Positions 2,557-7,197 of a DNA stretch of 41,936 bases are shown here, piece by piece (within the stretch, counting starts at the first letter, position 1; each line of letters starts with the position of its first letter). Below the pieces are notes generated by a model. The model was given only the letters and a program-made list of their open reading frames with translations, was not told the origin of the DNA and ran no database searches. The translations under genes were made by a program, and so were the position numbers. Origin of the DNA: Desulfonatronovibrionaceae bacterium (GTDB taxonomy: Bacteria; Desulfobacterota; Desulfovibrionia; Desulfovibrionales; Desulfonatronovibrionaceae); NCBI GenBank assembly GCA_046539845.1, contig JBKHGE010000018.1, positions 1-41,936 of the forward strand, in the 5' to 3' direction.

Positions 2557-2925
2557 TTAATCGCCCTTGAGTACGGTTCGCCTCTTTTCAAGAATAAACT
2601 TCTCCAAAAACTCCAGGTCCGGCTCACTGATTTCATAAAAATATAAACCGCAAACGAAGCGATCCGGATCATAAGAAGTAGTGTACACGACCCGGGTCCG
2701 AACCTCTATCTCCCGGTCCCTTACCAAGAGCTTCGTCTGCTCTAGATCGGTATGCACTCGGAAGCCGTCTTGGGAAAAATAAATGATCTGCACGCCCCGG
2801 GCGGACAAATTCCTTACCGGAAATTCCTCTCCCCGGACCGAAATCCGAACATGGTCCTCTTCCCCTACCGGAACCCGGAACTCTCTGCGGACAATCTTTT
2901 CCTCTTCTCCGGAAATTTTCTCCAT
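2557..2925 (-). CDS. Stand-alone PilZ-domain protein (putative c-di-GMP receptor)
   Basis: RREFR (RxxxR) and NLSARG ((D/N)xSxxG) motifs, followed by a beta-rich body and C-terminal helix; 122 aa. Confidence 0.85.
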   Translation of the reverse strand: MEKISGEEEKIVRREFRVPVGEEDHVRISVRGEEFPVRNLSARGVQIIYFSQDGFRVHTDLEQTKLLVRDREIEVRTRVVYTTSYDPDRFVCGLYFYEISEPDLEFLEKFILEKRRTVLKGD

Positions 2926-3270
2926 CGCTCGCCTCTTTTAAAACCACCGGATTTAATTGGCTGTTGCAAAATTTCTTGTATCCCGGGCCGCTGAAAAAAT
3001 TAACGGGAGCGGTGCAAAAAAGTTCAAGGTCTAAGCGCGTACCTATCTGTAGGTAAGAATTTGAACTCATTGCCGGCTTGCTGCCATTGAAAGATTTAAA
3101 GGCGGCCTGTTGAACCGGTCGTAATTGACCCAATCACATCCTTTGGGTTGATACTCGGCTCCCGACAATTGTTGATAAGCCAAATATACTGTTCCACTAC
3201 CCCAGAGCCCAGCTGATTTCAACCGCTAACCGCATTTAAAAGAAATCGGCATAATCCCCGCGCTTCGCGT

Positions 3271-3304
3271 GAAAACAAAGAGCCGGCTGTTTTGAAGCCG
3301 GCTC
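3271..3304 (-). terminator. Intrinsic terminator downstream of the hisD-purC-fabI-small ORF run
   Basis: Perfect 9-bp inverted repeat GAGCCGGCT (3280-3288)/AGCCGGCTC (3296-3304), followed on the minus strand by TTTGTTTT. Confidence 0.65.
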
Positions 3305-3510
3305 CGGAGATCAGTTCTTGGTTTTCTCAAAATCAGAAAGGGTCTAACCCTTTTGCTCCTTGGCCCTGCTTTTAACAACGAGCCCAGCACTAAAATCTTG
3401 ATTTGAATGCTTGATTGGCGGGTGTTAAAATTTCCGAGCCGCAAATTTGGCAGCCAAAAGATAAGACGGATAGATATTAACACCCATAAGTCTTGTCCCT
3501 GGCCCAGTCT

Positions 3511-3645
3511 TTATTTCTTGTCCTTATCCTGCAGACTGCAGGAATCACCGGCACCTCAGGGATTTATTCCTAGCTTGGGGAAAACCACCCGGACCAGGAC
3601 TATCCAGACAACCACTATACCAACAATTAGAAGCAGACTTTTCAT
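3511..3645 (-). CDS. Putative small membrane-anchored selenoprotein, 44 aa: MKSLLLIVGIVVVWIVLVRVVFPKLGINP-U-GAGDSCSLQDKDKK (29 aa if the UGA terminates)
   Basis: ATG at 3645, 5 nt after the fabI stop, with AGGGGTG SD-like sequence in the fabI 3' end; hydrophobic TM-like N-terminus; in-frame TGA at 3556-3558; frame stays open to TAA at 3511-3513; SECIS-like hairpin follows the UGA. Not in the ORF track. Confidence 0.7.
3526..3558 (-). promoter_or_regulatory. Candidate bacterial SECIS element
   Basis: UGA-GGUGCCGGUGA-UUCCUGC-AGUCU-GCAGGAU: 11-nt spacer, then a stem with a possible bulged U and a GU-containing apical loop; closely resembles the E. coli fdhF SECIS (UGA + 11 nt + GGUUGCAGGUCUGCACC, from memory). 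Confidence 0.68.
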
Positions 3646-3650
3646 AACAA

Positions 3651-4415
3651 TCACACCCCTATGGTATTGTACCCAGAGTCTACGTACACGATCTCCCCGG
3701 TCACCCCGGAGGACAGATTCGAGGCCAGATATACAGCGGTCCGGCCCACATCATCCTGGGAAACATTGCGCTTAAGCGGGGCCTTGTCCTCTATTGTCCG
3801 GAAGATATCCTTAAATCCGGAAACTCCAGAGGAAGCCAGTGTCTTGATGGGCCCGGCGCTTATGCCGTTCACCCGTACGTCCTTTTCTCCCAGGTCGACC
3901 GCCAGGTAGCGTATCCCGGCTTCGAGCGCGGCCTTGGCCACCCCCATGACATTGTAGTTTTTGACCGCCCGCACTGATCCCAAATAGGTCATGGCCATCA
4001 CCGAGGCTTCCGGGGTGAAAAGGGGCTCAAAGGCCTTACACAACCGGATCAGGGAATAGGCGGATATGTCCAGGGCGGTATGATACCCCTGCCTGGAGGT
4101 CTCAATAAAACGCCCGGAGAGATCCTCCCGCTCGGCAAAAGCCACGGAATGGACCAATACGTCCACTTCGCCCCATTTTTCTTGCACCGTATTCGCGGCC
4201 AGATCAATATCCTCATCGCTACCCACGTCGCAATTAAAGGTGAACTCGCCTCCCAGCTCCTCGCTTATGGGGACTACCCTCTTCTCCAAGGCCTGACCCA
4301 CGTAGCTGAAAGCCAGTCTGGCCCCCTGAGCGCGGAAATTTTCAGCAACGCCGTAGGCAATGCTTTTTTTGTTGGCCACACCAAATATCAACGCCTTTTT
4401 GTCCTTAAGCAGCAT
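3651..4415 (-). CDS. fabI: Enoyl-ACP reductase (NADH)
   Basis: GVANKKSIAYG, HSVAFA, YNVMGVAKAALE (YxxMxxxK), RVNGISAGPIKTLA. Confidence 0.97.
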   Translation of the reverse strand: MLLKDKKALIFGVANKKSIAYGVAENFRAQGARLAFSYVGQALEKRVVPISEELGGEFTFNCDVGSDEDIDLAANTVQEKWGEVDVLVHSVAFAEREDLSGRFIETSRQGYHTALDISAYSLIRLCKAFEPLFTPEASVMAMTYLGSVRAVKNYNVMGVAKAALEAGIRYLAVDLGEKDVRVNGISAGPIKTLASSGVSGFKDIFRTIEDKAPLKRNVSQDDVGRTAVYLASNLSSGVTGEIVYVDSGYNTIGV

Positions 4416-4445: not shown

Positions 4446-5345
4446 TCAGTCTATTTCCGGCTCTTTTCCGGTCAGCAGTTTATAGGCCTGGAAATACTTG
4501 TTTTTGGTCTCATCTATCACTTCCTGCGGCAGGGAGGGGGCAGGGGCTGTCTTGTCCCATCCCGAGGACTCCAGCCAGTCCCGGAGGTATTGTTTGTCAA
4601 AACTGGACTGGGGACGGCCGGGCTCGTAGCTCTCGGCCGGCCAGAAACGGGAAGAATCCGGGGTTAACACCTCGTCGATTATGTACATCTTTCCCCCGGC
4701 CAGCCCGAATTCAAATTTGGTGTCCGCAATTATAATCCCTCGTTTGGCCGCATAATCCCGGGCCCGGGAATACATCTGCAATGAAAGATCCTCAACAAGG
4801 CGGAAAAGGCCCTCTCCGACAAGACTTTTGGCCTGATGCCCGGTGATATTTTCGTCGTGTTCCCCAACCCCGGCCTTGGTGGAGGGGGTAAAAAGCGGTT
4901 TTTCCAGCTTCTGGGACTGAATAAGTCCCGGAGGTAGTTCATGGCCGCATACCTTGCCGCTTCTCTGATAGTCTTTCCAGCCCGAGCCGCTGATATAGCC
5001 CCGGACAATGCATTCTACCGGCAAAGGCTTGGTCTTGCGGACTATGACCGAACGACCCCGCAATTGATCCTCGTATTTGCCCAGATAATCCGGAAACTGG
5101 GAGAAGTCAGCGTGCAGGATATGATTTTCTCCCAGATCGGAAAACATATCCATCCAGAAAAGGGTCATCTGATTCAAAACCACACCCTTGTAGGGAATGG
5201 GGTCGGGAAGGACCACATCAAATGCGCTCATCCGGTCCGTGGTCACGATCAACAGCTGCTCTTTATCCAATTCGTATATATCCCGGACCTTTCCGGCTGA
5301 AAGCAGCTTGGCCTCCCCGATTCTGGTCTTGGTCACCACCTGCAT
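4446..5345 (-). CDS. purC: SAICAR synthetase
   Basis: GKVRDIY, TDRMSAFD, ECIVRGYISGSGW, ADTKFEFG, DEVLTPDSSRFW, SFDKQYLRDWL. Confidence 0.97.
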   Translation of the reverse strand: MQVVTKTRIGEAKLLSAGKVRDIYELDKEQLLIVTTDRMSAFDVVLPDPIPYKGVVLNQMTLFWMDMFSDLGENHILHADFSQFPDYLGKYEDQLRGRSVIVRKTKPLPVECIVRGYISGSGWKDYQRSGKVCGHELPPGLIQSQKLEKPLFTPSTKAGVGEHDENITGHQAKSLVGEGLFRLVEDLSLQMYSRARDYAAKRGIIIADTKFEFGLAGGKMYIIDEVLTPDSSRFWPAESYEPGRPQSSFDKQYLRDWLESSGWDKTAPAPSLPQEVIDETKNKYFQAYKLLTGKEPEID

Positions 5346-6960: not shown

Positions 6961-7052
<92 letters not shown>

Positions 7053-7071
7053 GGAATAAACCCAAAAAACG

Positions 7072-7163
7072 CAGGGAAGCCGGGCGGCAGTGGACCTGTG
7101 AACCCCGTCAGGCCCGAAAGGGAGCAGCGGTAACAGGCATTCACTGGGTGCCCGGTTTCCTTG
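7072..7163 (+). ncRNA. ffs: Signal recognition particle (4.5S) RNA
   Basis: Conserved domain IV GTCAGGCCCGAAAGGGAGCAGC with GNRA loop; ends pair (GGGAAGCCGGGC/GCCCGGTTTCC). Ends approximate. Confidence 0.93.
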
Positions 7164-7197
7164 GCAGGAGCGATAACAATCGTTCCTGCTTTTTTTT
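7164..7197 (+). terminator. Intrinsic terminator after tRNA-Ser/ffs
   Basis: GCAGGAGCGAT-AACA-ATCGTTCCTGC hairpin followed by a T8 run. Confidence 0.85.

Follow-up and report, generated by a model that had tools for sequence, protein, structure and literature searches.

An in-frame TGA behind fabI: a probable 44-residue, membrane-anchored selenoprotein with a SECIS-like hairpin in a Desulfonatronovibrionaceae bacterium and its relatives

A short gene candidate with an in-frame TGA was analyzed in a Desulfonatronovibrionaceae bacterium (assembly GCA_046539845.1, contig JBKHGE010000018.1). The window, i.e., the whole stretch of DNA analyzed, comprises 41,936 nucleotides (nt), and the candidate lies at 3645-3511 on its minus strand, in a conserved row purC-fabI-small gene of which purC is the first gene. 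An earlier reading of the sequence alone (the sequence-only reading) had described the frame, its in-frame TGA, an ATG 5 nt after the fabI stop codon and a Shine-Dalgarno (SD)-like site, and had proposed that the UGA is read as selenocysteine (Sec). All of these features are present on the minus strand, where the frame reads MKSLLLIVGIVVVWIVLVRVVFPKLGINP-TGA(3558-3556)-GAGDSCSLQDKDKK-TAA(3513-3511). The proposal of Sec decoding is supported by relatives, by homologues with cysteine (Cys), by a covarying hairpin and by sel genes. Based on these comparisons, a real Sec-containing membrane peptide is considered highly probable, and with good confidence 3645-3511 can be taken as a real gene for a 44-residue selenoprotein. 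The features of the locus are as follows:

4446-5345, minus strand: purC (SAICAR synthase), open reading frame (ORF); Pfam SAICAR_synt, E 4e-51 on the part within locus L009
3651-4415, minus strand: fabI (enoyl-ACP reductase), ORF of 254 amino acids (aa); Pfam adh_short_C2, E 7e-85; stop codon TGA at 3653-3651
3656-3660, minus strand: SD-like AGGGG inside the last fabI codons, 10 nt 5' of the ATG at 3645-3643; read from the sequence
3511-3645, minus strand: putative 44-codon selenoprotein gene, ATG at 3645, Sec-TGA at 3558-3556, TAA at 3513-3511; from the translation and orthologues with the same TGA
3574-3642, minus strand: predicted membrane helix, codons 2-24; AlphaFold2 helix with pLDDT of about 90, hydrophobic, with charge bias of the flanks
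3556-3558, minus strand: TGA, Sec30; invariant in 29/29 relatives, TGA in 140/141 phylum matches, Cys in 32 library homologues
3538-3540, minus strand: TGC, Cys36, likely partner of Sec30; codon within the 5' arm of the hairpin, Cys in 28/29 relatives and invariant in 32 Cys-forms
3527-3543, minus strand: hairpin UCCUGCA-GUC-UGCAGGA, like a selenocysteine insertion sequence (SECIS), 12 nt 3' of the TGA; from covariation, a synonymous-recoding control and a wider phylum set
3279-3353, minus strand: two terminator-like hairpins with U-rich tails (3353-3337 and 3305-3279); from a consensus-match scan only

Together with the own genome, 61 genomes of the order were searched with the read-through peptide. 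Matches at E ≤ 10 were obtained in 43 of these genomes, and the stronger ones cover all 44 residues with exactly one in-frame TGA. Within the genus, the peptides share 77% and 59% identity. From the 30 loci returned, 29 genes were extracted; the 30th locus, L037, carries TAA at the Sec codon and is considered below. In each of the 29 genes, the start ATG precedes the TGA by about 28-31 codons, and 14-28 codons follow the TGA. The aligned peptides share an invariant G26 and U30 and conserve P23, G31 and C36 to at least 90%; in the codon alignment the TGA stands in one column in 29/29 rows. Pairwise differences at codon positions 1/2/3 amount to 0.488/0.247/0.648 before the TGA and to 0.449/0.355/0.558 after it. 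The first two codons after the TGA vary only synonymously at position 3 (Gly31 as GGC, GGA or GGT; Pro32 as CCG, CCC, CCA or CCT), and the Cys36 codon is TGC in 25 relatives, TGT in three and CGT in one. The codon-position pattern together with the synonymous variation at GGN and CCN indicates that selection acts at the protein level downstream of the TGA. Thus, conservation past the UGA, for which the sequence-only reading had suggested to look, was found at the protein level: G31 and C36 are kept, and codon position 3 varies most.

The same was asked of the whole phylum with a profile of the 29 genes and a sample of 301 genomes, drawn evenly. Profile matches were found in 136/301 genomes, giving 141 match rows: 115 contain the TGA, 25 stop at profile position 29 and one (genome G028) has TAA. 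After all 25 short matches had been fetched, the next codon proved to be TGA in 25/25, bringing TGA at the homologous codon to 140 of the 141 phylum matches. These 25 belong to a sister subfamily, ..LP(R/K)(L/M/F)G(V/I)xT-U-MSxxC.., whose tail is beyond the reach of the profile. Homologues with TAA or TAG at this position, which had been named as evidence against Sec decoding, are accordingly confined to TAA in the one genome. The probability that there is no gene, i.e., that the frame is a chance opening in the 3' region of the purC-fabI operon, is negligible. The frame is short and lacks a match to Pfam or NCBIfam models, as would suit a chance frame, but this explanation is refuted, as far as computation allows, by the comparative data: the profile matches with the same architecture in 136/301 phylum genomes and in other phyla, the codon-position pattern of 0.488/0.247/0.648 before the TGA and the conserved ATG-TGA distance in 29/29 loci.

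Cys homologues were sought with the same 29-gene profile among 1.84 billion representative proteins, which yielded 219 matches at E ≤ 1e-3. Exactly 29 residues is the length of 77 of the 150 matches listed, which bears out the expectation that gene callers truncate the product at 29 aa. Full-length proteins with Cys at the Sec column made up 32 of the 46 matches fetched. When these 32 Cys-forms were aligned, P23, the Cys of the Sec column and the second Cys were invariant (..LPxLGIPT-C-MSG(A/S)-C..). Five fetched matches have W and one has G at the Sec column, presumably from a caller using another code for TGA. With a 12-row subset of the 32-row Cys alignment, 43 genomic loci of Cys-forms were located in metagenome-assembled genomes titled Planctomycetota, 'Deltaproteobacteria'/Myxococcales, Acidobacteriota, Omnitrophota and Nitrospirota. 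Thus, Cys-for-Sec homologues, a further check proposed from the sequence, do exist in other phyla. One library protein, P0002, is identical to the product of L028:1486-1635 (minus strand) except for U->S, P->H, C->W and P->L; both reactive residues are gone from an otherwise identical protein, and an error-prone assembly may account for this.

The hairpin downstream of the TGA pairs 3543-3537 with 3533-3527, either as 7 base pairs (bp) with loop GUC or as 6 bp with loop AGUCU; it starts 12 nt after the TGA and shares its sequence with the codons for S-C-S-L-Q. The sequence-only reading had rightly seen a hairpin here; its outermost pair, U(3544)/U(3526), cannot form, and the spacing is 12 rather than 11 nt. 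A hairpin stands at the same place in the 29 relatives, where the Cys codon closes the 5' arm. In a MAFFT alignment of the 29 relatives, 78.8% of the cells pair, compared with 21-56% in controls with the partner shifted by 1-3 columns. All seven pairs change on both sides, and the covariation score of 0.321, against 0.130 in shuffled alignments, was reached by 0/500 shuffles. RNAalifold, with no structure supplied, arrived at the same 5-bp core, each of whose five pairs shows compensatory changes. Stem variants include CUGC/GCAG, CUGU/ACAG, UUGU/ACAA and UUGC/GCAA, in which a synonymous change of the Cys codon goes along with a non-synonymous one in the partner codon. When the coding sequences were recoded synonymously, Cys-anchored stems were expected to reach 101.8 bp over 28 loci; 160 bp were observed, and 0/2000 simulations attained this value (maximum 130). 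The hairpin persists where the second Cys is missing (L036; L100, L107, L114). Thus, the covarying hairpin whose search had been suggested is conserved and carries compensatory changes.

In the wider phylum, a set of 58 rows, which represent 47 distinct loci with 11 listed twice, was examined for the same element. A stem of at least 5 bp was present in 53/58 rows, mostly 12-17 nt past the TGA, with a G in the loop in 50 and GU in 25, and stem sequences differ between subfamilies. The 47 distinct loci reached a mean hairpin score of 8.47 compared with 5.14 after shuffling, and 32/47 were individually at or below 5%. With a covariance model of the hairpin, the element itself scored 43.6 bits and the next match in the own genome only 18.3 bits, so that this genome has neither a paralogue nor a look-alike SECIS; the small gene is single-copy there. 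The SECIS of selD in the own genome differs in sequence from the hairpin at 3543-3527. A search of 3150-3750 with Rfam 15 gave two chance-level matches (E 1.3 and 4.6), neither of which covers the hairpin.

A conserved hairpin would also be expected if the gene ended at the UGA and encoded a 29-residue membrane peptide only, the downstream conservation then being that of a stabilizing or regulatory RNA element in the 3' untranslated region (UTR). This very unlikely alternative draws on the 29-aa product that gene callers give (77 of the 150 listed matches), on the TAA at the site in G028 and on the partial coincidence of the 'SCSxQ' conservation with the stem, the loop Ser being AGT in 20/29 loci. 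It is contradicted by the use of TGA and no other stop in 140/141 matches, and by the homologues of other phyla, which have a Cys sense codon at this position and continue into a homologous C-x4-C tail. Moreover, variation in the first two codons past the TGA is synonymous (GGN, CCN), and the frame remains open for 14 to 28 more codons in 29/29 relatives. Nor is the hairpin an intrinsic terminator, since it is followed by AAGGACAAGAAAUAA and no U-run; terminator-like sites lie about 160-230 nt further on.

Decoding of UGA as Sec requires the sel machinery, and the own assembly, 98.9% complete, was searched for it. tRNA-Sec was found with 82.7 bits (gathering score 47) and anticodon TCA, and selB (386 bits), selA (607 bits) and selD (331 bits) all scored above their curated cut-offs. 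None of these genes lies in the window, as had been noted; they sit on other contigs. The selD gene (G000:C4:33743-34672, minus strand) has its own in-frame TGA with a strong hairpin behind it, and selenophosphate synthetase itself thus appears to be a selenoprotein in this organism. Thus, the complete set selA, selB, selD and tRNA-Sec(TCA), for which the genome was to be checked, is present, and the organism can read UGA as Sec. Among the same-order genomes, selB was found in 57/61. No FdhA (TIGR01553) that might have served as an internal SECIS control turned up in the own genome at E ≤ 1e-20. A dsrA gene (621 bits) with a dsrB-like neighbor is present there, which fits the earlier guess of a sulfite- or sulfate-reducing lineage.

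With respect to the protein, AlphaFold2 modeling from the 29-row alignment predicted one helix at residues 2-24 (pLDDT of about 90) and a low-confidence tail at residues 25-44. The 12 residues after the helix contain on average 2.07 K+R and 0.17 D+E, compared with 0.14 K+R and 0.48 D+E in the N-terminal flank, and the Cys-forms share this bias (K+R 1.5 after the helix and 0.44 before it). By the established positive-inside rule, this bias suggests that the tail with Sec30 and Cys36 faces the cytoplasm. The helix probably inserts N-out/C-in, which would place both residues on a flexible tail at the cytoplasmic face. Over the whole family, the architecture consists of one N-terminal membrane helix, the motif (F/L)P(K/R)(L/F/M)G(I/V)x(T/G) and Sec in this phylum or Cys in other phyla, usually followed by a second Cys 5 to 8 residues on and then by a charged tail.

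The gene neighborhood was analyzed for the 29 loci of the window's order, for the Cys-forms and for Sec-forms from further families of the phylum. Within the window's order, the small gene directly follows purC-fabI in 12/29 loci and has an extra ORF between it and fabI in one; in 11 it directly follows purC (often hisD-purC), in three a SIR2-family gene, and two are unclear. The coupling to fabI proposed from the sequence is confined to the window's own family, with 12 of the 29 loci directly behind fabI and 11 directly behind purC. Downstream genes vary in this order. The AGGGG at 3660-3656 may function as an SD-like site, and the terminator-like hairpins at 3353-3337 and 3305-3279 likely mark the end of the transcript. 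Both hairpins lie in a gap of about 585 nt (2926-3510) without a convincing ORF, which separates the small gene from the next conserved gene; a 154-aa ORF with TTG start (2669-3133) is probably spurious. In L010, the downstream ORF is a homologue of that next conserved gene (2925-2557, minus strand; tblastn E 6e-31). An apparently conserved ORF just 3' of the small gene in L013, L022, L027, L034 and L036 was rejected, as it is a tRNA-Ser and a signal recognition particle (SRP) RNA read as protein. The corresponding features of the window are:

6961-7052, plus strand: tRNA-Ser(GGA)
7071-7167, plus strand: bacterial small SRP RNA, 68.9 bits

For the Cys-forms, up to three neighbors per locus were considered, i.e., 116 ORFs in 43 loci, and thiol- or sulfur-related neighbors were found in 17/43. 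An MBL-fold plus rhodanese gene of the persulfide-dioxygenase (PDO) type, the small gene and a TauE exporter gene stand in this order in L053, L058, L061, L070, L072 and L084, with thioredoxin, rhodanese-YgaP or ArsR genes nearby. In L054, L056, L060, L066 and L068, the small gene lies between thioredoxin and DsbD_TM-thioredoxin genes; in L079, L083, L085 and L087, it is next to a CoA-disulfide-reductase-rhodanese gene. Thioredoxins are found on both sides in L064 and L093, and one further Cys-form locus has CcmH. These layouts resemble the CstB/BigR operons for sulfide and persulfide detoxification (PMC12934615, PMC5823870). The Sec-form set comprised 36 loci with 140 ORFs; of the 40 loci fetched, four in which the gene could not be located were left out. 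Neighbors of the thioredoxin, DsbD_TM or YeeE type, the last for sulfur transport, occur in 6/36 of them (L128, L135, L144, L151, L152, L158).

Some arrangements recur between families. A NrfD-like gene (polysulfide-reductase membrane subunit type) precedes the Sec-form in four families (L139, L140, L160, L167), in three of which, L140, L160 and L167, a MerR-family regulator gene stands between the two; L139 is without MerR. Three of these four loci, and also L128, have hisG and an EngB-like GTPase gene nearby. A DUF302 gene directly follows the Sec-form gene in L162, with ArsR upstream, and the Cys-form genes of Acidobacteriota in L062, L067 and L092, with Usp upstream; since DUF302 follows both forms, the same pairing recurs across phyla.

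Such neighborhoods have been weighed for what they say about function. A somewhat unlikely alternative to a redox role is a selenoprotein that uses its Sec/Cys tail to bind or pass on a thiophilic metal (Hg, Cu, Cd, Ni, Fe, As) at the inner membrane face. It would account for MerR with NrfD-like genes (L140, L160, L167), ArsR (L134, L162), FeoB (L135, L158), CbiM (L139), NikR with DUF364/DUF4213 'heavy-metal chelation' (L153) and RND/CusB-like efflux genes (L151, L161) near Sec-forms, as well as for ArsR, AcrB, HlyD_D23 and ECF sigma/anti-sigma genes around Cys-forms. Several metal-handling selenoproteins are moreover listed in Table 1 of PMC13188914. However, neighbors of the thioredoxin, DsbD, rhodanese or persulfide-dioxygenase type are present at more loci (17/43), the peptide has no match among metal-binding family models, and the ArsR family also includes sulfane-sulfur sensors (PMC5823870, PMC12423496).

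Several loci place the gene between cytoplasmic sulfur enzymes and a membrane protein (PDO-rhodanese/small gene/TauE; Trx, i.e., thioredoxin/small gene/DsbD_TM-Trx; AcrB/small gene/CoA-disulfide reductase (CoADR)-rhodanese), and the arrangement NrfD / MerR / small gene is also seen. The selenoprotein might hence serve a larger membrane protein such as TauE, DsbD/CcdA, an RND pump or a NrfD-type quinone module as a small accessory subunit or regulator instead of acting as a stand-alone catalyst, and in a variant of this idea the UGA would tie the amount of full-length product to the selenium supply. A predicted protein of helix and tail and nothing more would suit such a role, yet the membrane neighbor varies by lineage and is missing from the window's own order (purC, fabI, hisD), and an accessory role is regarded as unlikely.

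A number of observations weigh against a Sec-containing redox peptide and have to be set beside the evidence in its favor. First, some concern decoding. G028 has TAA at the Sec codon (L037, contig G028:C11, about 1495-1640 of the locus), though this genome has selB; a recent G-to-A nonsense change, a sequencing or assembly error or a truncated form are possible reasons. G071, 94% complete, carries the gene and gave no selB match. Since selB is present in 293/301 phylum genomes, its co-occurrence with the gene is consistent with Sec decoding but has no discriminating power. Second, the hairpin of the window taken alone is within chance (z = -0.65 for the 71-nt fold; 45/200 shuffles fold as well), and it is conservation and covariation across homologues that lift it above chance. 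Compared with synonymous recoding, the energy of the whole region is mildly low (mean z = -1.22; p ≤ 0.05 in 6/29 loci), and the 'best stem anywhere' is significant in 0/29 loci. Related genomes are not independent, which overstates the shuffle statistics. Third, the second Cys is absent from several members, e.g., ..KT-U-LVPxNRQ.. (L096, L100, L107, L109, L115), and a U/C redox pair is thus not the whole story. Fourth, housekeeping genes (purC, fabI, hisD, serS) surround the small gene in the window's own order, a row that says little about function, and elsewhere the neighborhoods are mixed, many being metal-related (FeoB, CbiM, NikR, MerR, ArsR, RND/CusB-like efflux).

Two side observations concern the same residues. 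L037 reads ..FPKLGIKF-TAA-IRQKSCSMQP.., with tail and hairpin retained. One genus has two variants: in L099 (G123:C1:1542130-1542430), Cys stands immediately 5' of Sec (..GIQPCUQIPFPPEGG..), and in L100/L157 (G086), Sec stands alone with the same tail as in L099 and no second Cys nearby. The U-x5-C pair of the sequence-only reading holds in the window but not throughout: U-x4-C prevails in the phylum, and a second Cys is absent from several members.

Taken together, a membrane-tethered selenol/thiol center for redox or sulfur chemistry, recycled by thioredoxin, is tentatively put forward as the most likely mechanism. Ribosomes would probably reach the ATG by coupling to fabI, whose stop codon lies 5 nt upstream, and the UGA at 3558-3556 is, by the comparative evidence, recoded to Sec via the SECIS hairpin at 3543-3527. 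As the reactive center, the selenol would attack an oxidized or thiophilic substrate at the membrane surface, such as sulfane sulfur, a disulfide or a peroxide. Cys36 would resolve the adduct as a selenenylsulfide, and a thioredoxin-type reductant would recycle the Sec30-Cys36 selenenylsulfide. More doubtful is the broader proposal that the genes form a new family of single-pass 'selenopeptides' of 44 to about 60 residues, which would present a selenol at the cytoplasmic face for membrane-associated sulfane sulfur, disulfides or peroxides, be recycled by thioredoxin and be an architectural counterpart of SELENOS/SELENOK, with a SECIS that co-evolved with the codon of the resolving Cys.

The family was compared with databases and literature. 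Library sources name it only 'hypothetical protein', with no precomputed Pfam domain recorded, and a protein atlas returned only an unnamed Planctomycetota cluster. The window peptide matched 0 Pfam-A families at E ≤ 10 and gave one spurious match (E 4.3) in NCBIfam 20.0. Fifteen Cys-forms gave nothing above the cut-offs against Pfam-A (E ≤ 1) and NCBIfam, and 34 further Sec-forms gave weak Pfam-A/NCBIfam matches to the membrane helix only. A word-indexed homologue search with the single peptide returned no candidate; the profile searches succeeded. A 2026 review (PMC13188914) lists, in Table 1, 119 prokaryotic selenoprotein families or subfamilies with model accessions; no single-pass peptide of this kind is among these 119, and none of the NCBIfam/Pfam models named in that table scores against the family. 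The method deep-Sep (PMC12013277) depends on Cys homologues and names three hypothetical families, the models of which gave no match here. No description of such a family was found by full-text searches aimed at it or in Table 1 of PMC13188914, the coverage of the literature being incomplete. The family thus appears new; the mode of decoding is ordinary bacterial Sec decoding.

Almost half of the genomes sampled from a large, sulfur-cycling phylum carry the gene unannotated or cut to 29 residues, which implies that selenoproteome counts for these organisms are too low. Selenoproteins this small are missed by pipelines with a minimum ORF length or with a requirement for a recognized domain. If real, the peptide is among the smallest bacterial selenoproteins, and it is small enough for chemical synthesis and direct chemistry. 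The predicted membrane-tethered selenol, whose Cys-form counterparts lie in persulfide/thioredoxin operons outside this phylum, offers a concrete, testable lead on the cellular handling of reactive sulfur or thiophilic metals at the membrane.

Among known systems, bacterial selenoprotein genes of the SelB/SECIS class share with the window the in-frame UGA, a stem-loop 12-17 nt 3' of it and a G in the apical loop (for the class, see Table 1 of PMC13188914). Further likenesses are the full sel machinery in the genome, the Sec/Cys exchange among homologues and a nearby Cys that could form a selenenylsulfide. Unlike that class, the predicted protein has 44 residues, a single-pass anchor and no thioredoxin-like or other fold, being modeled as a helix plus disordered tail; moreover, the codon of the partner Cys helps to build the SECIS stem, and the frame ends 14 codons past the UGA. 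The UGSC-containing protein NF041046 and the hypothetical proteins DG (NF049953), DW (NF041197) and DF (NF049942) belong to the small predicted selenoproteins of the 2026 inventory and are likewise short, uncharacterized proteins predicted from Desulfobacterota-type genomes with Sec beside Gly, but none of their NCBIfam models scores against the window peptide (E ≤ 10) or the 34 Sec-forms (E ≤ 0.01). The FeoB-associated Cys-rich membrane protein, presumably the Pfam 'P12' family, is also tiny, with an N-terminal helix and a short Cys-bearing tail, and L135 and L158 lie near feoB. It differs in that no Pfam match was obtained with the window peptide (E ≤ 10) or the 15 Cys-forms (E ≤ 1), and in its motif, which here consists of one Sec/Cys plus one Cys after a conserved P-x-L-G-I-x-T.

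The nearest analogy may be eukaryotic SELENOS/SELENOK, single-pass selenoproteins of the ER membrane, in architecture only, with no sequence relation expected. These proteins differ in having the SECIS in the 3' UTR, in using the eukaryotic decoding machinery and in their length of 94-189 residues, 94 being that of SELENOK. They are alike in their anchor near the N-terminus and their disordered cytosolic tail with Sec near the C-terminus. For SELENOS, a Sec188-Cys174 selenosulfide and a reductase role have been proposed (PMC3628699), and in SELENOK the Sec lies within a disordered segment (10.1101/2021.05.15.444318).

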